Notes under the pieces: generated by a model
Told to the model about the DNA's origin: nothing
Seen by the model: only the letters and a program-made list of their open reading frames with translations
Databases searched by the model: none
Program-made: the position numbers and the translations under genes
Assembly (NCBI GenBank): GCA_903864935.1
Contig: CAIPHT010000006.1
Location: forward strand, 37,129 to 101,128
Direction of reading: 5' to 3'
DNA length: 64,000 nucleotides
Origin: Candidatus Vogelbacteria bacterium
GTDB lineage: Bacteria > Patescibacteriota > Minisyncoccia > Phycocordibacterales > XYD1-FULL-46-19
In this document: one piece after another, positions 2,442 through 61,311 of the stretch
Layout of the letters: each line of letters opens with the position of its first letter
How positions within the stretch are numbered: position 1 is the first letter of the stretch

Positions 2442-2476
2442 CAAAACCCCTTGCCCGAACGATGTCGAGCAAGAGG

Positions 2477-3469
2477 TCAGTAAAAGTAATCCTCCTCTTC
2501 GTCATTTCCTTCATCCTCAGGAACCGGAGGCAGACTCTCAGTTGGGACAACGACGACGGGCTTAGCCGGGAGGGGTGGATATATCTCCACAACCAGATGA
2601 CCATTTTTCTCGTGATTGACACGAAGTTGCAGGTCCTTAACACGCTTCTCAACACTACCCAGCTCTAAAGCCTTAGCTGCTCGCCGATGAGCAAGGGTTG
2701 GCAGGTGATCCCAACCGACAATCTTGGCAAGATGCTCCATGTGGGGGTATTTTGTCCCACCCGGTAAACGTAGGAGTGTCTCGACAACAACGTGCAAGGG
2801 CATCCCTGAATCAGCCAATCTGGCTAGTACCGGCTGAGCGCGTTTAAGCCGAGAGAATCTTTCGAGGGAGCGTCCATCTTGTGGGTAAGTCGACAGGCAC
2901 ATATCAATATACCAGGCCAGATCGTTCATCTGCCCCTGCAATTGCTTGTTTCGATTCAACTCGACCCAGCAAGCATCCCTGACGAACTCTTCGTCTCGGA
3001 GGTCAAAGCAGAAGCGAGCCCCACGAGGAAAATCTTGACGCACATCTTTGGTTTGGAGTTCCTGGCGAGTTCGTCGGTAATAATGTTTGTTAACAGTTAT
3101 ACCGAAGGTCCTATTCTTCCAACCAGAGACAGTTTTCTCGGCCAGCTCGTTTAGCTTAGACCAAACAAGCGGTGCGACAATCCGATACTGTGCCTCAGAA
3201 AGTCGAAAGAGTTTGTGCCGAGTATTCGGTCCAGCATTACTCCGCCGGTATGGTCGAGATCGCCAGAAGCCAATCTCACAAAGCAAGGCCTCGTTTGTCC
3301 TCCCAACTCGAGAATCTAGAGATCTTTCGCCTGGGCCAATTATTGCAATAACACTTAAGGCCCCTTTCGGATTTTCGGCTTGAGAGACAGACCCGTTACT
3401 GTAAATCTCCCACACAAAACGAGCGTGCCGTTGAACTTTAACGATGTCGTCAGCAATCTGCTTAAGCAT
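2477..3469 (-). CDS. Hypothetical protein in a GC-rich island, with an acidic C-terminal tail (EDEGNDEEEDYFY). A central segment weakly resembles wHTH plasmid replication initiators of the Rep_3 type.
   Basis: 330 aa. Perfect SD (gaaaggaggtgaa) 8 nt before the ATG. Local GC is about 52 %, against about 44 % in the flanks. The motif RHKLFRLSEAQYRIVAPLVWSKLNE resembles the Rep_3 N-terminal wHTH pattern; this was aligned by eye only. Confidence 0.45.
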   Translation of the reverse strand: MLKQIADDIVKVQRHARFVWEIYSNGSVSQAENPKGALSVIAIIGPGERSLDSRVGRTNEALLCEIGFWRSRPYRRSNAGPNTRHKLFRLSEAQYRIVAPLVWSKLNELAEKTVSGWKNRTFGITVNKHYYRRTRQELQTKDVRQDFPRGARFCFDLRDEEFVRDACWVELNRNKQLQGQMNDLAWYIDMCLSTYPQDGRSLERFSRLKRAQPVLARLADSGMPLHVVVETLLRLPGGTKYPHMEHLAKIVGWDHLPTLAHRRAAKALELGSVEKRVKDLQLRVNHEKNGHLVVEIYPPLPAKPVVVVPTESLPPVPEDEGNDEEEDYFY

Positions 3470-3590
3470 AATTCACCTCCTTTCGAGAGTGTGTTGTAGT
3501 TCACAAAGACCTAATTTTTCCTACCCCCAACTTACCATAAATTCAATTTTTCTGGCAATGGAAAAGCGCCACCCCAAGGGGCGACGCTTG

Positions 3591-4829
3591 TCAAGAGTCC
3601 AAACTCTTCTCGAGGATATCAAGAAGTTTTTGCTCTGTTGATGGAGACAAAGGAGGATTTGCTCTTATCATTACCTTTGCCTTAGTGACAGAAGAACTTT
3701 TCTTTCTCCCTGTGAAAATCAAGGTGTCTTCGAGGCCTGGCAAGACTAGTTGTTTAGGGAGAAGGCAGGGAACCCTTTTTACCCTAACCATCACACCCCA
3801 GCGATAGTACGGGCCAGACGGCGCAACGTAGTGGCAACACTTTTCTACTGGGCAGAACTGGCAAGGGTCACGATAGCCAACCGGCCAGTCTTCCAGTTTG
3901 AATTTTCGCGATGGAGGGGCTTTAGGAATGACTCTGTCCTCGCAAGAATTCTGAAAGTGATCAGCACATAGGGTGCGAGACAATACCCAAAGAGCAGGAT
4001 TTATCGCTAAATGGTCAAAGCCATTTCCAACCATAAACCATTGCGACCAACGGGCAACCAAGTCCGTTATTGTCTCACTGACTCTAAAGGCAATCTGACC
4101 TTTCCAATGATGCATTGCACCCCGTCCGCCAGGTTCATAGGGTTTAGCCAGAGAAAACTTCACAATCTTGGTTCCCTGAAGCAACCGAAGAGCGTGAAAG
4201 TCGATGGGCAATGGAGTAGCAAACACAGGAATCAAGCCAAAAGTCTGAAGCCAAATCGTAAACAACGAGAAAATCTTGCGTCTAATACCTTTCAAACCTT
4301 TAGATTTGCCGACTTCCCTGTAGTCTACTCGAGAAAAGGCTTCTTCAAAATCCTCAACACAGTTGAAGACATTAAGGACATTCCCGTCCCAGACTTCTTG
4401 AATTACTCGAGCGTTGTGTCTCCACGACCGAGCAAAGTCTCGATACTTTGGCCCCATCTTACCTACACCAATTTCTAAGCCGAGAGCCAATAGAATTTCT
4501 CCAGTTACGTCACTGAACAACTCACAAATTCTCTCCTCGGTCCACGACTCAATAATCCTTCGTGGCTCAAAGAGATCGGGATGAACAAGCGCCATTTGGT
4601 CAAGCCAACGAACAGGATCGTCCGAGACCATGCCTCCACGCATTGTTATCGACGCGAAGAACAGGAAATTCGCTCTGGCCCTTGGGTCTTTGGGCAAATT
4701 GACAAAACGGCTTTCGGGCAAGACAACATCATCAAACACCCCCTCCTTCTTTTCCCACGCTTTTTGAAGGGCGGAGAAAACTCGATAAGCACGAGTCTCG
4801 TCAACGACGATACGGTTTTTCTTTTCCAT
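3591..4829 (-). CDS. Hypothetical protein with a Cys-rich C-terminal region (six Cys, including C-x2-C-x4-CC). First gene of the GC-rich two-gene unit.
   Basis: 412 aa. Its SD (gaaaggaggtgaaaa) is identical to that of the downstream gene. High local GC. I recognise no known family. Confidence 0.45.
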   Translation of the reverse strand: MEKKNRIVVDETRAYRVFSALQKAWEKKEGVFDDVVLPESRFVNLPKDPRARANFLFFASITMRGGMVSDDPVRWLDQMALVHPDLFEPRRIIESWTEERICELFSDVTGEILLALGLEIGVGKMGPKYRDFARSWRHNARVIQEVWDGNVLNVFNCVEDFEEAFSRVDYREVGKSKGLKGIRRKIFSLFTIWLQTFGLIPVFATPLPIDFHALRLLQGTKIVKFSLAKPYEPGGRGAMHHWKGQIAFRVSETITDLVARWSQWFMVGNGFDHLAINPALWVLSRTLCADHFQNSCEDRVIPKAPPSRKFKLEDWPVGYRDPCQFCPVEKCCHYVAPSGPYYRWGVMVRVKRVPCLLPKQLVLPGLEDTLIFTGRKKSSSVTKAKVMIRANPPLSPSTEQKLLDILEKSLDS

Positions 4830-4931
4830 TTTTCACCTCCTTTCGGGTAGGTTGTTGTGGATCACTTGATCCGATTGTAGAGACCTTTCCTTCCTCAAGC
4901 TAACAGATTGCCTGTTATTGTCAAAAACTAA

Positions 4932-4971
4932 GGTAATAAACCATTCACGACCGTGAATGAATTGCTACCTT
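4932..4971 (+). repeat. 40-bp imperfect palindrome, family A copy 1 (ggtaataaaccattcacgaccgtgaatgaattgctacctt).
   Basis: Outer GGTAA..TTACC arms and inner CATTCACG-a-CCGTGAATG arms. Copies at 5557 and 30551. Confidence 0.6.
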
Positions 4972-4997
4972 GATATAAATTATCTATAATTTAAGAA

Positions 4998-5561
4998 ATG
5001 AAAAAGATTTCTAGAATAAATCACAAAGAAGTTATTTTAAGAACTATTGGCCTAGCTGGTTTACTTGCGGTCTCGGCTGTTGCCCCTGGGGTTTTGGTTC
5101 TTTATAAAAAACACAAGAAAATCCAGTATGAAAAACAGTCCAGAAATTATATAAACAGGGCAACGCAAAATCTAATCAAAGATGGTTTTGTCGAAATAAA
5201 AATTAACGAACAGGGAATAAAGTGCCTCCGTCTAACCAATCGTGGTCAAGAAGCCCTAAAGGAATACGCTTTGGCTGGGCTAGAAATCAAAAAACCTTGG
5301 CGTTGGGATCACAAATACCGGGTAATTATCTTCGATATTAAGGAATTTAAACGAGGAACGAGAGACAAACTAAGGCACTGGCTAGAACATCTTGGCTTTG
5401 TTCGCCTACAAAACAGTGTCTGGGTTTATCCCTATGATTGTCGAGAGGTCGTGATCTTACTTAAAGCTAATTTTAAAATAGGGAAAGAAGTCCTATATAT
5501 GACAGTTGATTCTATAGAAAACGATAAGTGGCTCAAGAAAGAATTTGGTCTGGCTAGGTAA
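4998..5561 (+). CDS. Short PaaX-like protein: N-terminal hydrophobic segment, a wHTH, and a Cas2/PaaX-middle-domain-like beta-alpha-beta core.
   Basis: 187 aa. The segment WRWDHKYRVIIFDIKEFKRGTRDKLRHWLEHLGFVRLQNSVWVYP matches the PaaX pattern W.GKW...L...GF.......P and the Cas2-like strand-helix-strand layout. TATAAT lies 7 nt upstream of the ATG with no SD. The gene is flanked by 40-bp palindromes at 4932-4971 and 5557-5596. Confidence 0.5.
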   Translation: MKKISRINHKEVILRTIGLAGLLAVSAVAPGVLVLYKKHKKIQYEKQSRNYINRATQNLIKDGFVEIKINEQGIKCLRLTNRGQEALKEYALAGLEIKKPWRWDHKYRVIIFDIKEFKRGTRDKLRHWLEHLGFVRLQNSVWVYPYDCREVVILLKANFKIGKEVLYMTVDSIENDKWLKKEFGLAR

Positions 5562-5596
5562 CAAACCGTTCACGGTCGTGAATGGTTTACTACCTT
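5557..5596 (+). repeat. 40-bp imperfect palindrome, family A copy 2. Overlaps the stop codon of the PaaX-like gene.
   Basis: ggtaacaaaccgttcacggtcgtgaatggtttactacctt. Confidence 0.6.
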
Positions 5597-5648
5597 TCTT
5601 TTTATTAAGAATTGTGATAATTTGCCAACAGAAAGGAGGTGATTAACA

Positions 5649-5984
5649 ATGTTTTTTAAAAGAAAAGCTGTTTCTGTACAACTTAAAGAGGGTGACGAGA
5701 TCCGGGTTCATAACAAGGGGATGTCTTGGGCCGTCTACTTTTATCGCTTTAACCGTCGCATAGGCGTTTGGGAGGAAATACGTTGTAGGAGCTCATTCCT
5801 TCGAATGGAAGTACCTCTCGGGGGGAGTAAGGAGGACCAAATCGCTGCAGCGAAAGGGGTGGTCGAGACCATCGCCGGATTCGCTGGTTATACCCTCTCC
5901 ACAGGGCCTAGCGAAAGGGTTGGGTGTGAAAGCGATGATCCTATTGTTCATGGTTGGGTAGGGGAACCAGTTTACAGGGTCTAA
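5649..5984 (+). CDS. Hypothetical small protein.
   Basis: 111 aa. Strong SD (gaaaggaggtga) 8 nt upstream. Followed by a rho-independent terminator at 5994-6030. Confidence 0.4.
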   Translation: MFFKRKAVSVQLKEGDEIRVHNKGMSWAVYFYRFNRRIGVWEEIRCRSSFLRMEVPLGGSKEDQIAAAKGVVETIAGFAGYTLSTGPSERVGCESDDPIVHGWVGEPVYRV

Positions 5985-5993
5985 GAGGATGCC

Positions 5994-6030
5994 TCCGGTG
6001 CGCGCTTGCGTGCACCGGGGGATTTTTGTG
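5994..6030 (+). terminator. Rho-independent terminator.
   Basis: CCGGTGC-gcgcttgc-GCACCGG stem followed by gggatttttgtg. Confidence 0.6.
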
Positions 6031-6043
6031 AAAAAACGAAAAA

Positions 6044-6071: not shown

Positions 6072-6077
6072 TTGGAA

Positions 6078-9056
6078 ATGGAAAAAAAATCTAAATACGA
6101 TCATAAAAAGATCGAGGCCAAGTGGCAAAAGAAATGGGTAAAAGATAAAACTTACGAGACCAAGGACCCTTCGACAGGCTCAGGGCGAGCGGGAAGTAAG
6201 AAGCCCAAGGCCTATGTTCTCGACATGTTCCCATACCCCTCTGGTGACGGACTTCACGTTGGGCATCCTAAGGGCTATATTGCCACTGATATTTACTCCC
6301 GTTTCAAGCGCATGAACGGTTTTAACGTCTTGCACCCGATGGGTTGGGACGCTTTTGGTTTGCCAGCCGAGAATTATGCCATTAAGAACAAGATTAATCC
6401 TGAGGTCGCCGTTAAGAAAAATGTTAAACGCTTTAGAGAACAAATAGACAAAATTGGTTTTGATTATGATTGGTCGCATGAGATTAATACCACTGACCCC
6501 AAGTACTATAAATGGACACAATGGATTTTCTTACAATTATATAAAAAGGGGCTCGCTCATGAGTCTTGGGAGCCAATTAATTGGTGCCCATCGTGCAAGA
6601 CAGGTCTCGCCAATGAAGATCTTGAGAATGGTAAATGTGAGCGCTGTGGCTCTGAAGTAGAGAAGAAGCCCATGCGTCAATGGATTCTTAAGATTACCGA
6701 TTATGCCGAACGTTTGCTCTCCGACTTAGATGCTCTTAATTGGCCCGAATCCGTCAAGGAATCTCAACGCAATTGGATTGGCAAAAGTGAAGGTTCCGAA
6801 ATTTCCTTCCCGATCAAAACAAAATATAAGTATGTCTTACTCCACGGCTGGCGCAGTAGCTCTAAGACCTGCTTCTTCCCTTGGCTTAAGAAAGAGCTCG
6901 AGGCCGAGGGTCATGAGGTTATCGCTCTTGATATGCCTCACCCACTGCTACCTGATGTCGTAGAGCAAGCGGATTATGTTTTGTCGAAGGTCAAATTCGA
7001 TGAGAACACAATTCTTTTGGGCCACTCACTTGGTTCTGTTGTCTCTTATCGCATCTTAGAAAAACTTAAGACACCAATTCATAAATTAATTTTGGTCGCC
7101 GGTTTAATTGAGCCTAAATTCCGCGACCATGACCGCTTGCTTGCCAAGTATTTAATGAGTTGGAAATTTGATTTTGAGAAAATTAAGAAAACTGTTGGCG
7201 AAATTGTCATTCTTGAAGACAATAATGACGTTATCATCCCCGATGGCGAATCGAATGTGATAAAACAGGCCCTTGGTGGTTATAATTACCGCCTAGAGGC
7301 CGAGAAAGCCCATTTCTGCGGGACGGTTGAACCTTTGGTCTTAGAGCACAGCCTCGACAAGATCAAGGTCTTCACCACTCGGGCCGACACCTTGTTTGGT
7401 GCGACTTATTTAGTCGTGGCGCCTGAACATCCGATAATTGAGAGGTTGTCTCCTCAGATTGATAATATCAAAGAAGTTAGAAAATATGTCGCCAAGGCCA
7501 GCAAGCGAACAGAAATTGAGCGAACAGCTGAAGGCAAAGACAAAACAGGAGTTAAACTTGAAGGTCTAACAGCCATTAATCCAGTTAATAACAAAGAAAT
7601 TCCCATTTGGGTCGCCGATTATGTTCTCCCTGATTACGGCACAGGAGCAATTATGGCTGTTCCGGCTCACGACGAACGCGACTATCAGTTTGCGAAGAAA
7701 TTTAATCTGCCGGTTATCCAAGTTATTGGTGAGGACTTGCCAACCAGACTAGAAAATTGGGGGCAAGCCTATGCTGGTTATGGTAAATTAATTAATTCTG
7801 GTAATTTCACCGGGATGGAGAGTACCAAGGCGAAGGGAGCAATTACCAAACTCGCTCGGGGGCAAATGGTCACCAAATACAAACTTCGTGACTGGGTCTT
7901 CTCGCGTCAACGTTATTGGGGCGAACCGATCCCAATTATTCATTGCCCTAAGTGTGGTGTTGTGCCCGTCCCCGAGAAAGAATTACCCGTCGTTCTACCT
8001 AAAGTGAAGAGCTATGAGCCAACTGGCACAGGGGAGTCACCGCTGGCCGCTATCTCTAAGTGGGTCAATGTGAAGTGTCCGATTTGTGGCGAGAAGGCCA
8101 AACGTGAGACCAATACCATGCCTCAGTGGGCCGGGTCATCTTGGTATCATCTGCGTTATATTGATCCGAAGAATAACAAGGCTCTCGTTGATAAAAAGAA
8201 AGAGAAATATTGGTCACCGGTAGACGTGTATGTTGGTGGCACCGAGCACGCCACTCGTCACTTAATCTACGCTCGCTTCTGGCACAAATTCCTCTTCGAT
8301 ATCGGAGCGGTGAGCCAAACCGAACCTTATGCTCGACTTAAAAATCAGGGGATGATCTTGGGTGCCGACAACCGCAAAATGAGTAAGCGTTGGGGTAATG
8401 TTATTAACCCCGATGATATTGTGCGCGATTTTGGCGCTGACACTCTCCGCGTTTATGAGATGTTTATGGGACCCTTCGAGCAAGGCGCGTCATGGAGTAC
8501 TGATAACTTAATGGGCGCGAGACGCTTTGTGGAGAAAGTTTGGAGATTAAGTCAACGACTTCGCACAGCTGGTTCATCAAGTAAAGCCCTTGAGGTCTTA
8601 CTCCACAAAACTATCAAGCAAGTCACTTCAGATATCGATAATTTCAACTACAACACGGCCATCTCGGCGCTCATGATATTAACGAATGAGTGGGAAAAAG
8701 TTGGGGGCGTAACTAAAGAAGATTGGCTAATTTTTCTCAAATTATTCGCACCTTTTGCTCCGCACTTAGCCGAAGAGTTGTGGTCTAATCCGCCAGCTGG
8801 CGGAGGACAAAAAGGTTCTATCCACCTCGCCAAGTGGCCAGAATTTGATGAGAAGAAGCTCGTGAGCGACACCGTCACCCTCGTCATCCAAGTTAACGGC
8901 AAAACCAGAGAATCAATTATTGTAGACAGGGACACCTCACAAGAAGAGGCCGTAAAAATGGCTCTAAATAACGATATTATTAAAAAATGGGTGGGTGAAG
9001 TCGTACCCAAGAAGATAATTTATGTACCCAATCGTTTGCTCAATCTGGTCGTCTAA
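6078..9056 (+). CDS. leuS: Leucyl-tRNA synthetase carrying an inserted YdeN/RBBP9-type serine-hydrolase (alpha/beta-hydrolase) domain, nt about 6822-7346.
   Basis: HIGH motif HVGHPKGY, Zn motif CPSCK...CERCG, CP1 hallmarks VFTTRADT and AVPAHDERD, KMSKS as KMSKRW, and a C-terminal anticodon-binding domain. Between NWIGKSEGSEISFPI and KVFTTRADT there are about 175 residues, where E. coli has about 10. These align along their length with B. subtilis YdeN (LHGW.SS..FFPWLKK.L...G..V.ALDMP.P..P; GHSLG nucleophile elbow). The ORF track starts at the TTG at 6072; the ATG at 6078 is the more likely start. Confidence 0.9.
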   Translation: MEKKSKYDHKKIEAKWQKKWVKDKTYETKDPSTGSGRAGSKKPKAYVLDMFPYPSGDGLHVGHPKGYIATDIYSRFKRMNGFNVLHPMGWDAFGLPAENYAIKNKINPEVAVKKNVKRFREQIDKIGFDYDWSHEINTTDPKYYKWTQWIFLQLYKKGLAHESWEPINWCPSCKTGLANEDLENGKCERCGSEVEKKPMRQWILKITDYAERLLSDLDALNWPESVKESQRNWIGKSEGSEISFPIKTKYKYVLLHGWRSSSKTCFFPWLKKELEAEGHEVIALDMPHPLLPDVVEQADYVLSKVKFDENTILLGHSLGSVVSYRILEKLKTPIHKLILVAGLIEPKFRDHDRLLAKYLMSWKFDFEKIKKTVGEIVILEDNNDVIIPDGESNVIKQALGGYNYRLEAEKAHFCGTVEPLVLEHSLDKIKVFTTRADTLFGATYLVVAPEHPIIERLSPQIDNIKEVRKYVAKASKRTEIERTAEGKDKTGVKLEGLTAINPVNNKEIPIWVADYVLPDYGTGAIMAVPAHDERDYQFAKKFNLPVIQVIGEDLPTRLENWGQAYAGYGKLINSGNFTGMESTKAKGAITKLARGQMVTKYKLRDWVFSRQRYWGEPIPIIHCPKCGVVPVPEKELPVVLPKVKSYEPTGTGESPLAAISKWVNVKCPICGEKAKRETNTMPQWAGSSWYHLRYIDPKNNKALVDKKKEKYWSPVDVYVGGTEHATRHLIYARFWHKFLFDIGAVSQTEPYARLKNQGMILGADNRKMSKRWGNVINPDDIVRDFGADTLRVYEMFMGPFEQGASWSTDNLMGARRFVEKVWRLSQRLRTAGSSSKALEVLLHKTIKQVTSDIDNFNYNTAISALMILTNEWEKVGGVTKEDWLIFLKLFAPFAPHLAEELWSNPPAGGGQKGSIHLAKWPEFDEKKLVSDTVTLVIQVNGKTRESIIVDRDTSQEEAVKMALNNDIIKKWVGEVVPKKIIYVPNRLLNLVV

Positions 9057-13966: not shown

Positions 13967-13983
13967 TGCTTTGTCTTTCCCGG

Positions 13984-14023
13984 CCCCCGACACGCACCAG
14001 CGTTGTCGGGGGCAGTTTTGTTT
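13984..14023 (+). terminator. Rho-independent terminator of cassette 1.
   Basis: CCCCCGACA-cgcaccagcg-TTGTCGGGGG followed by cagTTTTGTTTG. Confidence 0.6.
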
Positions 14024-14484: not shown

Positions 14485-14502
14485 ACCCGGTTTCTTTCGT
14501 TG

Positions 14503-14541
14503 CCCCCGACACGCATCAGCGTTGTCGGGGGCAGTTTTGTT
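14503..14541 (+). terminator. Rho-independent terminator of cassette 2.
   Basis: CCCCCGACA-cgcatcagcg-TTGTCGGGGG followed by cagTTTTGTTT. Paralogous to 13984-14023. Confidence 0.6.
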
Positions 14542-14650
14542 TATTCAAAAAACCCTTATTTGTCGAAGTCCAACTTCGTAAACTATACAAAACTGTTAAT
14601 AAGTGACAAATATTTTTATTTTTGGCTATTTTTTGTTACTATATTAGACA

Positions 14651-25619: not shown

Positions 25620-25890
25620 AATTTATGCCATAGTAAAACTACACAGCTTAAGGGCTCACTTGCCACAAGTTCTAGGACAGAAACTTAATCTTGTGCAAAG
25701 GAGGAGAAGACGGAGGGAAGACCTCTGAGATGAAAAAGGTCTTACATTGGGCAAGACGGTAGGTATGACAGATGGGAAGACTGCGGTTGTTCCCCGCACC
25801 CCTGTCACTGGCAAGCTGAATGGGCCGAGCTGGATAGGGGTGTCACAATAGTGGCATCCCGCCTTTTTATTTAAACTTATCCCCATTTTT
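25620..25890 (+). ncRNA. Candidate structured non-coding region. The strand is unknown and no family is assigned.
   Basis: About 270 nt lies between a strong terminator and the REP element, with no credible ORF. Several local hairpins, for example AAGACCT-ctgagatgaaaa-AGGTCTT. I see no convincing match to RNase P, SRP, tmRNA or 6S RNA conserved motifs. Confidence 0.2.
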
Positions 25891-25896
25891 GTATAC

Positions 25897-25919
25897 TATG
25901 CGAGATTGGATATCGCACA
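25897..25919 (+). repeat. REP hairpin (tatgcgaGATTGGATAtcgcaca).
   Basis: 7-bp stem and 9-nt loop. Identical core at 26640, 30888 and 49459, and an inverted copy at 26105. Confidence 0.7.
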
Positions 25920-25949
25920 ATAAGGGTTTTTATGATAATATAATGACCA

Positions 25950-26624
25950 ATGAGGGAGAAGCCCACGGAAGACTACATTTATCACATTTTTAATCGCGGA
26001 GTAGACAAGCGAGAAATTTTTTCTGATGACAGTGATCGTCAACGTTTTTTGGCCTGTCTTTATCATTTTAATGACACAGCTCAAGTGAGAAATATCGATC
26101 GCGTGTGCGATATCCAATCTCGCACAAATGACGACCGGGATAAATTAGTGGAGATACTAGCCTTTACCCTGATGCCTAACCACTTCCATCTCTTAGTAAA
26201 ACCTCTGATTGAAGACGGTGTTTCTGAATTTATGAAAAAAATTGGTATTGGCTACACTCATTACTTTAATATAAAAAACGAACGATCAGGAAGTCTCTTT
26301 CAAGGTAAATATAAATTTGTAAGGATAGAAGACGATGAGCAGCTAAACTATATACCTTATTACATCCACTTTAATCCAGCCGAACTCGTTGATTCGGGAT
26401 GGAAAGAAAAAAAAGTTCAGGATAGTCAAAAGGTTTTTGATTTTTTAAAATCTTATAGATGGTCAAGTCTTCGAGATTATCTCGGCCAAGACAATTTCTC
26501 TCAAATTATAGACAAAGGGGTCCTGACAGACTACCTAGGGAGCCCCGAAGAATTTGAGAAGGAAATCTCTGCTTGGCTCAAAGAAATGGGCTCAATAGAC
26601 CATACAAATCTGTGGATAGAGTAG
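25950..26624 (+). CDS. IS200/IS605-family Y1 (HUH) transposase of the RAYT type.
   Basis: YHIFNRGVDKREIF, HUH motif NHFHLLV, then GYTHYFN....SGSLFQGKY with the catalytic Tyr. 224 aa, which is typical RAYT length. Confidence 0.8.
   Translation: MREKPTEDYIYHIFNRGVDKREIFSDDSDRQRFLACLYHFNDTAQVRNIDRVCDIQSRTNDDRDKLVEILAFTLMPNHFHLLVKPLIEDGVSEFMKKIGIGYTHYFNIKNERSGSLFQGKYKFVRIEDDEQLNYIPYYIHFNPAELVDSGWKEKKVQDSQKVFDFLKSYRWSSLRDYLGQDNFSQIIDKGVLTDYLGSPEEFEKEISAWLKEMGSIDHTNLWIE
26105..26127 (+). repeat. REP hairpin copy in inverse orientation, embedded inside the RAYT coding sequence.
   Basis: tgtgcgaTATCCAATCtcgcaca, encoding DRVCDIQSRTND. Confidence 0.6.
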
Positions 26625-26639
26625 CCAAAATATCCTTAT

Positions 26640-26662
26640 TGTGCGAGATTGGATATCGCACA
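26640..26662 (+). repeat. REP hairpin (tgtgcgaGATTGGATAtcgcaca).
   Basis: Perfect 7-bp stem; see 25897. Confidence 0.7.
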
Positions 26663-29421: not shown

Positions 29422-29456
29422 GAAGTTGGCACTTCGCGTAGCCAAGTCCAACTTCG
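29422..29456 (+). repeat. Short-form GAAGTTGGACTTC-family palindromic element immediately after the dnaK stop.
   Basis: gaagttggCacttc-gcgtagcc-aagtccaacttcg. The arms are inverted relative to the pyrD copies. Confidence 0.5.
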
Positions 29457-29534
29457 AAAACTTTAATTTATTCAAAAGGAAAACCCACCGTGTGTCAGAC
29501 GGAGGGTTCTCCGAATTCACACGGCGGGTGGGGA

Positions 29535-30359
29535 TCAATACGCCTTAGTTTCCAGGCAGTGACGAACACCGTAGTCTGCCTCTTTCGAGTGGGTCTCCCC
29601 AAGGCTAATGGCGATCGCCAGGGCACGCTCAGGATCTTTTTTGGCTAGTCTCAACAGCATTTTCGCCAAGTTGGGGCTCTGGTGCGGACATGCGAACATG
29701 ACTGTGCCAAGAGTGTCAGCCATAAGCTCTGGCGCCAAAAACCAGAAAACCTCAGGAAGATTTAGAAAGTGTTCATTCGTCTTGGGATTACATGTCGCTG
29801 AAATACCCGCCTTGGTGAGAAGAGCAAGGGCCTCCGCTAAATTAAGGCCCTTGGCCGCATGGGCAATTCGCGTAAGCTCCACCGCCTGATTTGCCATTTC
29901 TTGGCGGGCCATCGCTTCCTTCTCTCTCTCATTCTTTCCCTTAATATACCAATAAATGGGGAGGGCCATAAAGTAGAGAACGAGCACCTCTGTGACAGAG
30001 AACAGGGCAACCCACAGCGGAGTCGGAAGGTTCGTGATCCCGAAGAAATAGATAAACGGGACAAGAACAACCCCAGTAAAGGCCAAGATCGCTTCTCCAC
30101 GAAAAATAAAATTCTTCGCGTCGGGGTCAAGCGCATTCCAAAACCCTTTCAACTCTTTCCGCACCGTTGCCCACTTCTGGCTCAACTTCTTGCCGTAAGC
30201 AAGGTTGACCATAGAAGCAAGGGCGATCAAGGCACACGGCAGCATGACCTTAAAGGGTTGGGACATCATCGCCGAGGCCAACATGGACAGGAGAAGGCAG
30301 ATGGCCAAAACCACAACTTCAAGTCTCTTCGCGTTCATGACAATGTTCCTTTTCTTCAT
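29535..30359 (-). CDS. Hypothetical multi-pass membrane protein.
   Basis: 274 aa with at least four predicted TM helices. It sits in the insertion between dnaK and dnaJ on the opposite strand. Confidence 0.4.
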   Translation of the reverse strand: MKKRNIVMNAKRLEVVVLAICLLLSMLASAMMSQPFKVMLPCALIALASMVNLAYGKKLSQKWATVRKELKGFWNALDPDAKNFIFRGEAILAFTGVVLVPFIYFFGITNLPTPLWVALFSVTEVLVLYFMALPIYWYIKGKNEREKEAMARQEMANQAVELTRIAHAAKGLNLAEALALLTKAGISATCNPKTNEHFLNLPEVFWFLAPELMADTLGTVMFACPHQSPNLAKMLLRLAKKDPERALAIAISLGETHSKEADYGVRHCLETKAY

Positions 30360-30550
30360 CCGCGGGGAATGCTCAGGGCCGATTTCTACGCAGGGTAGAC
30401 CTAAGTCACCTTCGCCTGCAACAGAGCAAGCTACGGCGAACCAAGGAGGGGGTTGCCCTAATCAGCTGATTTCAAGAGTGCCTTACTGAATTTCAGACAC
30501 TCACTTTCTGCTTCTAATTATACTCTCATTTTACTGCCCTGTCAAGCCAT

Positions 30551-30590
30551 GGTAATCATCCATTCACGACCGTGAACGATTTGTTACCTT
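30551..30590 (+). repeat. 40-bp imperfect palindrome, third copy of family A (ggtaatcatccattcacgaccgtgaacgatttgttacctt).
   Basis: Same architecture as 4932-4971 and 5557-5596. Confidence 0.6.
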
Positions 30591-30794: not shown

Positions 30795-30887
30795 GGCGAA
30801 TCTCCTCTAAGTTGCCATCGTTCTGCTTTCTATTATACACCTTTCTATTCTCTCTGTCAAGCCCAACTCTTGTCTAAAAAACCTTAG

Positions 30888-30910
30888 TGTGCGAGATTGG
30901 ATATCGCACA
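30888..30910 (+). repeat. REP hairpin copy (gtgtgcgaGATTGGATAtcgcacac, 9-bp stem).
   Basis: Identical to the RAYT-flanking REPs. Confidence 0.7.
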
Positions 30911-32762: not shown

Positions 32763-32807
32763 CGACCTATTTCCCATACTTATAATTATAACCTTATGTA
32801 CAAAATC

Positions 32808-32834
32808 AGACGGCCGTCCAAAAGTGTACATAAG
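32808..32834 (+). repeat. 27-bp direct repeat, left copy (agacggccgtccaaaagtgtacataag). Contains the perfect palindrome GACGGCCGTC.
   Basis: 26 of 27 identical to 33403-33429, in the same orientation. Confidence 0.65.
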
Positions 32835-32850
32835 GTTCTTTATAAAATAT

Positions 32851-33372
32851 TTAGATAATATCTGTTTCTTTAACTTCAAAAAATTTCAGAAAAGGCGTAA
32901 TCTTCGCTACTTTCAAAAACTCAATAAATTCTGGGGGTAACGGGGCGGGGCCAAGCCAGACACTCTGTTGCATTTTTTTGAAACCGAGGGTTACCAATTC
33001 TATCCTCAACCAGTTTCTGTCTTTACGTCTCGCTTCGGGAATGTCAAAAGCTATAATAATCTTGCGGTCTGATTTTTTCTGTTTATTTTCTACTCTGGCA
33101 TATTTTTTAGAAAACTTACTTTTACCAAATTTATTCTTACCGAAAACTGTGATTTTCCAAAGACCATCTTTATTTTCAACCAAACCCTGCTTTTTCAGGC
33201 GAGACAGGGCAACCCTAAGAGAATTATCAAAAACTTTATCCTCCTTTATTTTAGAACCCTCCCCCAGATCATCAAAGCCAGGACCAACACGCCGAAGCAT
33301 CCGTTCTCTCAAACGGCTATAATTTCCGGGACTATTCGATAAGAAAAATAACAATTCTTCACCAATACTCAT
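32851..33372 (-). CDS. Short PaaX-like protein 2 (wHTH plus Cas2-like core), a paralogue of 4998-5561.
   Basis: RKIIIAFDIPEARRKDRNWLRIELVTLGFKKMQQSVWLGPAP gives the same pattern as the first copy. The N-terminal wHTH is LRVALSRLKKQGLVENKDGLWKIT. The start is moved to the ATG at 33372, because the ORF-track start at 33426 lies inside the flanking direct repeat. Confidence 0.45.
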   Translation of the reverse strand: MSIGEELLFFLSNSPGNYSRLRERMLRRVGPGFDDLGEGSKIKEDKVFDNSLRVALSRLKKQGLVENKDGLWKITVFGKNKFGKSKFSKKYARVENKQKKSDRKIIIAFDIPEARRKDRNWLRIELVTLGFKKMQQSVWLGPAPLPPEFIEFLKVAKITPFLKFFEVKETDII

Positions 33373-33402
33373 TTTTTTATTTATCACCATATTATCATAT
33401 TT

Positions 33403-33429
33403 GGACGGCCGTCCAAAAGTGTACATAAG
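33403..33429 (+). repeat. 27-bp direct repeat, right copy (ggacggccgtccaaaagtgtacataag).
   Basis: See 32808-32834. Confidence 0.65.
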
Positions 33430-33795: not shown

Positions 33796-35130
33796 ATGGA
33801 AAGCTGGATCAAAACTAGGAACAAAATTATTGGTTGGAATTATCGAAATATTCTCAAACCAATTCTCTTCAAATTCGATCCTGAAGATATCCACGACTTA
33901 TTTATTAAAGTAGGGAATCTCCTTGGCCAAACATCCGCCACTCGATATTTAACAAGAGTTCTTTTTGATTATGAGAACCCAGTGCTTGAACAAGAAATTT
34001 TGGGCATCAAATTTAAAAATCCAGTTGGCCTCTCGGCTGGCTTCGACAAGAATGCAAGACTAACAAAAATCTTACCAGCTGTTGGCTTTGGTTTTGCTGA
34101 AGCGGGTTCAGTCACTGGCCGACCCTGCAAGGGCAATGAGGGGCGACATTTATGGCGCTTGCCTAAGTCTAAGAGTTTGATTGTTTATTATGGTTTGACG
34201 AATGATGGGGCAGAGGCCATCGCCAGGCGATTGTTAGAAGTCCAACTTCAAGTGAGCCCGAAGTTGGACTTCGAACAAGAAGCCAAGGGTCCGGAAGTTG
34301 GACTTCGGGCTCACTTGAAGTCCAACTTCCTACACAAGTCCAACTTCGTTCTGGGCATCAGTCTCGCCAAAACAAACGACCAAAAAACCATCACGACCGA
34401 AGCGGGGACTGCTGATTATATTAAAGCCTATGAAGCCTTCCTCAAGACCGACGTTGGCGACTACTTCACCATCAACATCAGTTGCCCCAACACCTTTGGT
34501 GGCGAACCTTTTGTTGAACCAGAACGTCTTGATTTGTTACTCTCCGCTTTTGCTAAAATAAGAGACGAAGAATCTGCCCGAGGACTACCCTCGGTCAAAG
34601 CGAAAGAAGTCCAACTTCAAGTGAGCCCGAAGTTGGACTTCGTGAGCGTCAACCGTCCACTTTTTATAAAACTCCCACCAGACCTAAGTGAAGAAAAACT
34701 AGACGCCATTATTGAACTGGTCAAGAAATATAAAATCAATGGCTTCGTCTCGACAAATCTCACCAAGGACCGAAACAATCCACTAATTAAAGATAAAATA
34801 AAGGATCCTTTGCCCACAGACAAAGGGGGATTGTCAGGTAAGATTGTTGAGGAGCTCGCAACCAAGCAAATTGAATATATTTATAAAAAAATAAAAGATC
34901 TCCCTCAGACCGAGAGACCTATCATCATTGGTTGCGGAGGCATCTTCACAGCCCAAGACGCCTACAACAAAATCAAAGCTGGCGCCTCACTCCTCCAACT
35001 CATCACCGGGATGATTTTCGAAGGCCCTCAAGTCATTAGCGAGATCAATCAAGGCCTGGTCACCCTGCTCCAAAAAGATGGGTATAAAAATATAAGTGAG
35101 GCGGTAGGGAAGTCTACTTGCCAACCATAA
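33796..35130 (+). CDS. pyrD: Dihydroorotate dehydrogenase (class 2-like), carrying three in-frame palindromic-element insertions that add about 100 aa.
   Basis: GFDKNA, NISCPNT, GGLSG, IIGCGGI...DA..KI.AGASLLQL.TG. It is 444 aa, against about 340-360 for typical DHODH. The extra peptides EVQLQVSPKLDF (twice) and PEVGLRAHLKSNF are encoded by the repeats at 34237-34273, 34292-34330 and 34606-34642. Confidence 0.8.
   Translation: MESWIKTRNKIIGWNYRNILKPILFKFDPEDIHDLFIKVGNLLGQTSATRYLTRVLFDYENPVLEQEILGIKFKNPVGLSAGFDKNARLTKILPAVGFGFAEAGSVTGRPCKGNEGRHLWRLPKSKSLIVYYGLTNDGAEAIARRLLEVQLQVSPKLDFEQEAKGPEVGLRAHLKSNFLHKSNFVLGISLAKTNDQKTITTEAGTADYIKAYEAFLKTDVGDYFTINISCPNTFGGEPFVEPERLDLLLSAFAKIRDEESARGLPSVKAKEVQLQVSPKLDFVSVNRPLFIKLPPDLSEEKLDAIIELVKKYKINGFVSTNLTKDRNNPLIKDKIKDPLPTDKGGLSGKIVEELATKQIEYIYKKIKDLPQTERPIIIGCGGIFTAQDAYNKIKAGASLLQLITGMIFEGPQVISEINQGLVTLLQKDGYKNISEAVGKSTCQP
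34237..34273 (+). repeat. 37-bp palindromic element, short form (GAAGTCCAACTTC-aagtgagcccg-AAGTTGGACTTC-g), in frame in pyrD.
   Basis: Perfect 13-bp inverted arms. Translated as EVQLQVSPKLDF. Confidence 0.75.
34292..34348 (+). repeat. Inverse-orientation copy of the 37-bp element plus an adjacent half-element, in frame in pyrD.
   Basis: cggaagttggacttcgggctcacttgaagtccaacttcc, then aagtccaacttcg. Translated as PEVGLRAHLKSNF..HKSNF. Confidence 0.7.
34606..34642 (+). repeat. 37-bp palindromic element, second direct copy, in frame in pyrD.
   Basis: Identical to 34237-34273. Confidence 0.75.
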
Positions 35131-35526: not shown

Positions 35527-35666
35527 CCGGCCCCCATTACTCCCGCCCGTACGGCGGCAACGAATCCCGTTGCTAGCAGTACGTGGCGGGATTTTTTGTT
35601 TAAGAAAAGGAAGTTAGAAGTCGGATCTGGCTACGCGAGATACGACTTCAGAACTTCCTAACAAAA

Positions 35667-35733
35667 GAAGTCCAACTTCAAGTGCCTGCCCCTCGAAGCC
35701 TTGGCGAAGTGGGGAGCCCGAAGTTGGACTTCG
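35667..35733 (+). repeat. Full-length (about 67 bp) palindromic element: GAAGTCCAACTTC-aagtg-cctgCCCCTCGAAGCCttggCGAAGTGGGGag-cccg-AAGTTGGACTTC-g.
   Basis: The 37-bp form in pyrD equals this element minus the inner roughly 30 bp. Intergenic, between the 35155 gene and the convergent tyrS. Confidence 0.7.
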
Positions 35734-47208: not shown

Positions 47209-47240
47209 TTACCAATTTAGACGACCGTCAAAATTGGTAA
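47209..47240 (+). repeat. Palindrome TTACCAATTT-agACGACCGTCa-AAATTGGTAA between convergent genes. Probably a bidirectional terminator.
   Basis: 10-bp arms. The central ACGACCGTC core is shared with other repeat families in the window. Confidence 0.5.
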
Positions 47241-47307
47241 CATTTTTTGCAATTGTAAATTTTGTTACCAATTTTTGATAACGTTTTTTAGAAAAAAGAA
47301 AGCCGCC

Positions 47308-47592: not shown

Positions 47593-47694
47593 GACTTTTC
47601 TCCTTTGTTTAAGACCCAAACCTAGCCTAATTATGCACAAATAATATTCCAAGACAAACATTTGCCAAAAGATTAATTAGTGTTATCATGTAAA

Positions 47695-47865
47695 TAAGCT
47701 CTTGAGCCGATTAACAACCGGGCGAAACCTCAAGGCAAATGAGTTACAAATCAGGGTGGCACCGCGGAATTATCCGCCCCTGGGACTAGAAGTCCTTGGG
47801 GTGTTTTCTTTGTCTCGCCGAAGTCTTACCTAGACGAAGGCGGATAATTACAAAATTATTTATTA
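47695..47865 (+). promoter_or_regulatory. T-box riboswitch leader of aspS.
   Basis: Canonical T-box sequence AGGGTGGCACCGCGG at 47753-47767, followed by an intrinsic terminator (CCCCTGGGAC...GTCCTTGGGG TGTTTTCTTTG). A short stem I (CTTGAG...CTCAAG) encloses AACAAC, a candidate AAC (Asn) specifier. Confidence 0.6.
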
Positions 47866-49209: not shown

Positions 49210-49458
49210 AAACATAACAAAAGCCGAGAGTTTCCTCTCAGCTTTCCGAGGCGTCACTCTCGGGTTATGACACTAAATTCGATAACGATGACGTCGCATG
49301 ACGTACTCCTTCCGCGGCTAGGCCGCTAGTGATGGCCGACCCCTGACGTAGGCAAGCGGGGTAACCCTGGCGTGGACCGCTAAAACAACCAAAAGATCAA
49401 TAATTATAGTGTAGCATACCATTAATCTTTTGTCAAGCCCATCCCAAGAAAGCCTTAT

Positions 49459-49481
49459 TTTTCGATATCCAATCTCGAAAC
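49459..49481 (+). repeat. Degenerate REP hairpin (tttcgaTATCCAATCtcgaaa). Same loop as the RAYT REPs but a variant stem.
   Basis: Loop identical to the REP family. Confidence 0.45.
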
Positions 49482-60773: not shown

Positions 60774-61311
60774 ACCCAACCCGCCCGTCTGTTAAGCCAC
60801 CGGCAAGCCCGTCGTCTTGATGAGACGGGCTTTGCTATTACTTTAAATTATAAATAAGCGATTTTTAAGGCGAAAAGTGAAAAAAATCGAAAAATGACCA
60901 AATTTGGCTTTTTGAGGATCTTTAAGAAAATAGCGATATTAACACTTTTTGACGGCCGTCAGGAAATGTTAATAAGGGTTCGGGGTCAGAAATTTAGCGA
61001 TAAGTTGACAGAGAAGTGAAGAAAATATTTTTGGAAAATAATTTTTAGACGGCAGGGTAGGGGGTTTTAATATCGCAAAATGCATTGTCCGACGTCAAGG
61101 CACACATCGGACAATGCCCTTCGATTTTGCAACATTAAGCCTACGGCTTATGTCGCAAAATCTATGTTGTGCGACATATACCATAGTTATCCACAGCTAG
61201 CTAAAAGCCCTCCCCCTTTACAAGATTGACAATTTGTTTCACATTTGATAATCTATCTTTCAGACAAAGTGGTGAGCAACTAGTGCTTACCCAAACAAAA
61301 AGGAGAAGTCC

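Follow-up and report, generated by a model that had tools for sequence, protein, structure and literature searches.

Mini-PaaX genes of Patescibacteria lie between paired palindromes that combine a common CGRYCG centre with paralogue-specific arms

Analysis of a 64,000-nucleotide stretch of a Candidatus Vogelbacteria genome (hereafter the window) revealed a short PaaX-like gene, gene A, enclosed by two long palindromes. Comparison with related loci showed that this layout is a family rule: the gene lies between two sites which share a CGRYCG centre and bear arms specific to each paralogue. Our data suggest that the encoded protein, which we term mini-PaaX, is probably a dimeric autorepressor with a PaaX-type pair of 40-bp operators and a few extra targets. 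A first-pass annotation of this DNA had named operators of the gene A protein as an alternative explanation for the palindromes, and on the sequence comparisons presented here this appears to be the best-supported reading. No description of the mini-PaaX family or its palindromes was found in the literature searched.

Gene A (4998..5561, plus strand) was defined by ORF calling, Pfam, NCBIfam and an AlphaFold model, and encodes 187 aa. The upstream site, PalA-up (AAGGTAATAAACCATTCACGACCGTGAATGAATTGCTACCTT, 4930..4971), is a 42-bp two-fold-symmetric sequence situated 26 nt before the ATG, with the core CGACCG at 4948-4953 and the outer blocks AGGTAA and TTACCT. The downstream site, PalA-down (AGGTAACAAACCGTTCACGGTCGTGAATGGTTTACTACCT, 5556..5595), has the core CGGTCG at 5573-5578. 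The stop codon of gene A (TAA, 5559-5561) falls within this site, which is followed by a T-rich stretch including a T-run at 5596-5606. The first-pass annotation had described near-identical 40-bp palindromes upstream of the start and across the stop. Both positions were correct and the flanking pair is real, but the two sites are 85% complementary rather than nearly identical. A third copy, the PalA orphan, was confirmed at 30551..30590 (core CGACCG at 30567-30572). The centre motif TTCACGRYCGTGAA occurred three times in the window against 0.03 expected, a count reached in 0 of 100 shuffles. Searching metagenome contigs with the PalA DNA pattern gave a single, uninformative match, which fell in protein-coding DNA from an unrelated organism of high GC content.

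The gene A product consists of a winged helix (approximately aa 9-82), a linker helix and a Cas2-like domain (approximately aa 100-187). In Pfam, residues 102-174 matched PaaX_M (PF20803, 'central Cas2-like domain') with E=2.2e-17 and 63 bits (cutoff 24), whereas CRISPR_Cas2 remained below its cutoff (E=6e-4, 20.3 bits versus 23.8). A winged-helix family also gave a sub-threshold Pfam match. Among NCBIfam models, TIGR01573 (Cas2) scored 31 bits, above its cutoff of 24.5 but over profile positions 1-39 of 96 only, and the PaaX equivalog TIGR02277 scored 26 bits, far below its cutoff of 264.55. The N-terminal PaaX winged helix PF07848 did not match A in Pfam and matched its paralogue B (below) with merely E=0.055. 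The C-terminal effector-binding domain PF08223 was absent from A in the same search, the protein stopping at 187 aa.

In the AlphaFold model of A (pLDDT 84, with just 57-67 over most of residues 1-50), a region of winged-helix topology precedes a ferredoxin-like domain. The top PDB fold match of the model was E. coli PaaX 8a39 (E=4e-6, 196 columns, both domains), ranked ahead of Rv0674, 3l09, Cas2 structures and winged-helix proteins. The first-pass description of a PaaX-like product with a winged helix-turn-helix and a Cas2-like core was supported by both the PaaX_M and the 8a39 matches. A PDB sequence search with A returned nothing significant, PADLOC found only partial Cas2 matches, and PHROGs yielded a weak transcriptional-regulator match for A and nothing more. 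Asp113 and Glu116 are invariant in the gene A protein family, and Asp113 aligns with the Asp that ends strand 1 of Sulfolobus Cas2, which is the Cas2 active-site Asp; its conservation may reflect a catalytic, metal-binding or structural role. We know of no Cas2-type Asp in full-length PaaX.

The window contains a second mini-PaaX paralogue with its own, differing palindrome pair, which the first-pass annotation had overlooked. Gene B (32851..33372, minus strand) encodes 173 aa with a Pfam PaaX_M match of E=3.8e-14. Its product is identical to the 173-aa database protein P0389, and 118 of its residues align with A at 29% identity. The PalB upstream site (33388..33429, core CGGCCG at 33406-33411) has its dyad 36 nt from the gene B ATG. 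The PalB downstream site (CTTATGTACA..ACGGCCGT..TGTACATAAG, 32793..32834) begins 16 nt past the stop codon and is placed between the ends of convergent genes, and a PalB orphan was located at 60935..60976 (core CGGCCG at 60953-60958). A third arm family is represented by the orphan PalC (TTACCAATTTAGACGACCGTCAAAATTGGTAA, 47209..47240), for which no cognate gene was found within the 64-kb window. PalC begins 2 nt past the stop codon of a class Ib (Trp/Tyr) tRNA synthetase gene, and a T-run and terminator hairpin lie downstream of it. The CG-R-Y-CG centre is common to all seven PalA, PalB and PalC sites.

Two further observations concern the vicinity of PalC. An isolated extra half-site, GTTACCAATTTTTGA, lies at 47262-47285 (about 47265-47278), approximately 25 bp past PalC. 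A T-box leader suspected at approximately 47690-47800 had no Rfam match at gathering thresholds. No contigs on record turned up when proteins A, P0389 and P0400 were looked up by exact sequence.

Gene A has more than 500 relatives of approximately 185 aa. All those with a named source came from Patescibacteria or from an unclassified bacterium, and their source annotations read either 'Cas2' or 'PaaX', neither of which fits mini-PaaX proteins. A profile search returned 626 clusters (50% identity) at E<=1e-30 and 3237 at E<=1e-10, of similar length throughout among the matches listed. We scanned 80 homologous loci from other Patescibacteria genomes for CGRYCG-centred palindromes, requiring pairing at 11 or more of 16 arm positions. 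This strict scan, whose counts are lower bounds, detected an upstream site in 58 loci, a downstream site in 63 and both in 47; at least one flanking palindrome was present in 74 of the 80. In two of the six loci with neither, both sites were visible by eye, the stop codon lying inside the downstream one. A stricter test of outer-block symmetry only did not improve site detection. The distant B subfamily followed the same layout, with an upstream site in 5 of 5 loci and both sites in 4 (proteins 38-72% identical to B; named sources Liptonbacteria and Jorgensenbacteria).

Palindromes of this type are rare away from the genes. Merely 11 non-flanking CGRYCG-centred sites were found across 579 kb, and shuffled sequences gave none. 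Together with one orphan per family in the 64-kb window, this is not the distribution of ubiquitous intergenic REPs. The arms differ between genes even within one genome: in a genome of the sub-megabase class, at least seven mini-PaaX paralogues each had different arms.

Downstream sites were kept whether the next gene was co-directional (34 loci) or convergent (26 loci). Neighbouring genes belonged to 88 Pfam families over 73 loci, unrelated housekeeping genes with no recurrent partner, so that no partner gene hints at mini-PaaX function. Neither transposase nor Cas1 was found among the 25 most frequent of these 88 families, and a scan of viral contigs detected no mini-PaaX relatives.

Two loci of the survey had unusual sites. 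The flanking palindromes of a homologue in L033, at approximately 3970 and 4560, are centred on AAGCTATAGCTT instead of CGRYCG, a rare core variant. In L053, the intergenic region upstream of fusA (5520-5800) contains a cluster of three CGRYCG-centred sites with three arm families; one has the arms of the locus itself and another those of a paralogue in L025, which is from the same genome.

Alignment of the sites revealed a common build: an outer block of 9-10 bp that is specific to the paralogue, an A/T-tract spacer of approximately 5 bp, the core N-CGRYCG-N, a second spacer and a second outer block. Two-fold symmetry was bipartite, with 93-95% beside the core, 60-75% at positions 2-5 and 83-97% at positions 7-15, and it fell to background past position 17. 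Within the spacer an A-tract gives way to a T-tract (A 53-68% at positions 7-10, T 42-59% at positions 3-5). The four half-sites within a locus agreed by at least 95% at positions 7-14, compared with 37% identity between loci. Mismatches of G:T versus A:C type numbered 37 and 48 in upstream sites and 60 and 47 in downstream sites, revealing no wobble bias on either strand. The weak inner zone and the lack of wobble excess are unlike a stem selected for pairing. As judged from this symmetry, the pattern fits recognition of bent duplex DNA by a symmetric protein dimer that contacts each half-site in two zones.

Variation in the protein parallels that of the sites. Mean pairwise identity rose from 26% in the predicted recognition helix and 31% over the whole winged helix to 61% in the Cas2-like domain. 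The sites vary likewise, with variable outer blocks and an invariant centre.

Comparison of orthologues indicates selection on both flanking sites. Orthologous 38-bp sites were 82-95% identical, compared with 41-64% at fourfold-degenerate positions. Between the window and L081, identity was 0.51 at fourfold-degenerate positions, 0.95 in PalA-up and 0.87 in PalA-down. Downstream sites were conserved equally with upstream ones, and the downstream site is thus functional and no relic. In contrast, paralogues from one genome with similar synonymous divergence had sites that were merely 53% identical. Recent duplication followed by quick re-specification of such paralogues was considered and dropped because their synonymous sites are saturated.

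Several properties of the upstream and orphan sites resemble those of operators. Gene A is preceded by the promoter-like sequence TTGCTA-17-TATAAT (4962..4990, plus strand; a consensus match only, 10/12), whose -35 hexamer (4962-4967) lies within the right arm of PalA-up and whose -10 hexamer ends 8 nt before the ATG. Across loci, the dyad of the upstream site was a median of 42 nt from the start codon. The PalA orphan is 5 bp from a 12/12 match to TTGACA-17-TATAAT (30545-30517, minus strand) that faces the gene at 29535-30359 (minus strand). In each of four related genomes (L062, L067, L069 and L071), an orphan site is positioned 86-90 nt upstream of the start of the operon containing the regulator gene. 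E. coli PaaX offers a precedent, as it binds TGATTC(N27)GAATCA, a palindrome of approximately 39 bp with hexamers about three helical turns apart, and represses its own promoter (PMC9493321). Taken together, promoter overlap, dyad spacing, orphan positions and the PaaX precedent support an autorepressor with a small regulon.

Protein A has no ligand-binding domain. On this model, it would dimerize through its Cas2-like domain, and the dimer would bind the double-stranded 40-bp two-fold-symmetric site. The fast-evolving winged helix would read the outer blocks and the conserved Cas2-like core would sit over the CGRYCG centre, with the A-tract/T-tract spacer allowing the site DNA to bend. As the upstream site covers its own promoter, protein A would repress itself. 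The downstream site would most likely serve as a second operator, a roadblock or a terminator closing the unit. A few further copies, such as the one by promoter 30545-30517, would form a small regulon. Each paralogue in a genome has a private site sequence.

Other data fit the autorepressor less well. PalB-down, between convergent gene ends, and PalC, past a stop codon, are not explained by a simple promoter operator, and downstream sites occur regardless of neighbour orientation. Across loci, neither -10 nor -35 elements kept a constant distance from the dyad. Arms in some loci are perfect across 20-24 bp, exceeding the expected need of one winged helix. Nor does the operator model account for the lack of a sensor or effector domain or for the invariant Asp113 and Glu116.

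Several known systems resemble mini-PaaX in part. PaaX, the phenylacetate repressor of E. coli and Pseudomonas (8a39, 3l09), has the same order of winged helix and Cas2-like domain. Unlike PaaX, mini-PaaX lacks the C-terminal phenylacetyl-CoA effector domain, has no paa genes nearby and retains the Cas2-type Asp; its sites add a universal CGRYCG centre, its gene is bracketed by two of them, and many orthogonal paralogues occur per genome. Cas2 of CRISPR adaptation shares the fold and the motif (V/I)xFDI...R..LR..L...G....Q.SVW, active-site Asp included, but it has no counterpart of the added winged helix, and its model TIGR01573 was matched over only 39 of 96 positions. No CRISPR repeat array was found in the window, and the neighbours of genes A and B are unrelated. 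A likeness in layout is seen with the CI genes of lambda (OL/OR) and coliphage 186 (FL/FR), where an autoregulated repressor gene stands between its own operator sets as proposed here. Both phage systems form DNA loops between their operator sets. The folds are unrelated, however, and the mini-PaaX unit is a chromosomal element of 0.65 kb with many orthogonal copies and no phage context. What we propose is PaaX-type recognition of a long palindrome, here in a stripped-down and highly paralogous family whose genes are bracketed by their own sites and whose sites share a universal centre.

Patescibacteria account for much of bacterial diversity, and their gene regulation is almost unknown. Because each mini-PaaX gene is bracketed by its own sites, the predicted binding sites are evident from genome sequence alone. 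The many natural protein-site pairs of orthogonal specificity could permit regulon mapping in uncultured organisms and serve the study of specificity change in winged helices. They could also show whether DNA at an unvarying centre is contacted or cleaved by a Cas2-like fold.

In an alternative we consider unlikely, the unit is a DNA-transaction or selfish cassette whose active Cas2-like nuclease or nickase is positioned by the winged helix on the CGRYCG centre. Such a unit would serve excision, copy control, addiction or homing, much like a REPtron with its RAYT replaced by a winged-helix, Cas2-like protein. It would account for the invariant Asp113 and Glu116, the alignment of Asp113 with the Cas2 catalytic residue, the universal centre with variable arms, and a gene that stands alone and bracketed whatever its neighbours. 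The location of cassette A is also consistent with mobility, as it falls within a lineage-specific insertion missing in the closest relatives and its left flank differs in L081. Conversely, PaaX uses its Cas2-like domains solely as dimerization modules, the window contains CGRYCG at no less than the expected frequency (59 observed versus approximately 42 expected), orphan copies are few, and viral contigs yielded no relatives. A narrower version, a previously unknown DNA-transaction system with a catalytically competent Cas2-like domain and a hypervariable winged helix acting on the CGRYCG centre, seems to us decidedly unlikely. If true, it would provide a free-standing Cas2 relative tied to palindromic repeats and would bear on the origin of Cas2 and of CRISPR-type repeats.

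In L086, where cassette A is absent, the stop codon of an ABC-transporter gene abuts the leuS promoter and overlaps the leuS -35 hexamer. This empty junction implies that the window carries a 3.6-kb insertion at about 2442-6043, the ends of which are far from the palindromes (4930 and 5595). The three closest LeuRS relatives (78-84% identical) retain the flanking synteny and lack cassette A at this place, and a different insertion occupies this ABC-transporter/leuS junction in L083 and L085. In a 94%-identical relative, L081, the cassette and approximately 30 nt of left flank are shared before the sequences diverge. Many mini-PaaX orthologue pairs are fully syntenic, across many lineages, and paralogues within a genome are old, aligning across the coding sequence only with saturated synonymous sites (pS 0.35-0.84). 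These data indicate that the cassette is gained and lost within larger segments, and that the palindromes show no sign of being transposition ends.

Besides cassette A, the insertion contains two minus-strand ORFs, 2477-3469 and 3591-4829, and a small ORF of 111 aa, none of which matched Pfam, NCBIfam or PHROGs. The small ORF downstream of the cassette (5649-5984) has a counterpart in L081 (768-1055) with the RBS and start position kept; the proteins can hardly be aligned (29% over 28 aa), making this ORF either very fast-evolving or replaced. As leuS is likewise downstream of gene A homologues in L037, L041 and L044, we considered whether gene A has stood beside leuS since deep ancestry, a view weakened by the lack of the cassette there in the three closest LeuRS relatives. 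In the LeuRS gene itself (6072-9056, 994 aa), an inserted domain of the serine-hydrolase / alpha-beta-hydrolase kind occupies aa 254-403, before the editing domain. This insert is common to many Paceibacteria LeuRS homologues, some of which also contain a NUDIX domain.

An architectural or insulator role, which we judge unlikely to the same degree as the selfish cassette, would make the protein-DNA complexes transcription roadblocks, gene-end boundaries or chromosome-organizing sites, with the bracketing insulating the unit's own gene. Sites at both gene ends regardless of neighbour orientation would follow naturally, as would PalB-down between convergent genes and PalC after a stop codon and before a terminator hairpin. 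The L053 cluster of three different-family sites and the A-run/T-run extensions of several downstream sites, which resemble bidirectional terminators, point the same way. It is hard to justify paralogue-specific recognition for a generic boundary, however, and the upstream sites overlap promoters, while the conserved orphans 86-90 nt before an operon resemble operators.

The palindromes are very unlikely to act at the RNA level, as hairpins that terminate, stabilize or direct processing of transcripts, with the Cas2/VapD-like domain binding that RNA or acting on it as a ribonuclease. Ribonuclease activity has been reported for some Cas2 and VapD proteins, downstream sites within approximately 35 nt of the stop codon would be transcribed, and T-runs follow both PalA-down (5596-5606) and PalC. 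Yet T-runs were no general feature after sites (positions 17-30, surveyed loci), the dip in symmetry at positions 2-5 would fall inside the stem, and G:U bias was seen on neither strand. Upstream sites, moreover, are mostly upstream of the predicted transcription start, and orphans are upstream of promoters.

The window does contain a RAYT-like Y1 transposase gene (25950..26624; Pfam Y1_Tnp, NCBIfam), as the first-pass annotation had noted. Copies of its own REP, TGTGCGAGATTGGATATCGCACA, flank it in the two orientations (region 25885-26662), and further ones occur at 30888-30910 and 49449-49477. RAYT and REPs form a textbook REPtron, a separate system whose REP shares no sequence with PalA, PalB or PalC. 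Mobilization of the hairpin-gene-hairpin cassette in trans by this transposase, as an IS200/IS605- or PATE-like passenger, had been suggested in the first-pass annotation; despite the nearby RAYT and a superficially REPtron-like layout, we consider it highly improbable, since the RAYT is surrounded by distinct REPs that also occur elsewhere, palindromes and PaaX-like protein vary together across 80+ loci, transposase is not among the commonest neighbour families, orphans number approximately 1-3 per family with no REP-like population, and the empty-site comparison locates the insertion ends elsewhere.

The mini-PaaX unit does resemble a REPtron in that a single gene is flanked by lineage-specific palindromes with copies elsewhere. 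It differs in that the gene A product is PaaX_M instead of HUH/Y1, that there are only approximately 1-3 orphans, that the sites overlap promoters, and that their symmetry is that of a protein-binding site on duplex DNA, as opposed to a hairpin.

The window has other repeats and promoters of note. Two 12/12 sigma-70 consensus promoters lie on the minus strand 315 bp apart, the one at 30517-30545 adjoining the PalA orphan and the one at 30832-30860 adjoining a REP copy. A separate repeat family consists of GAAGTCCAACTTC / GAAGTTGGACTTC inverted repeats at 34232-34334, 34603-34642, 35664-35684, 14566-14587 and 29444-29465, and a GC-rich hairpin family occurs at 13974-14023 and 14493-14542.
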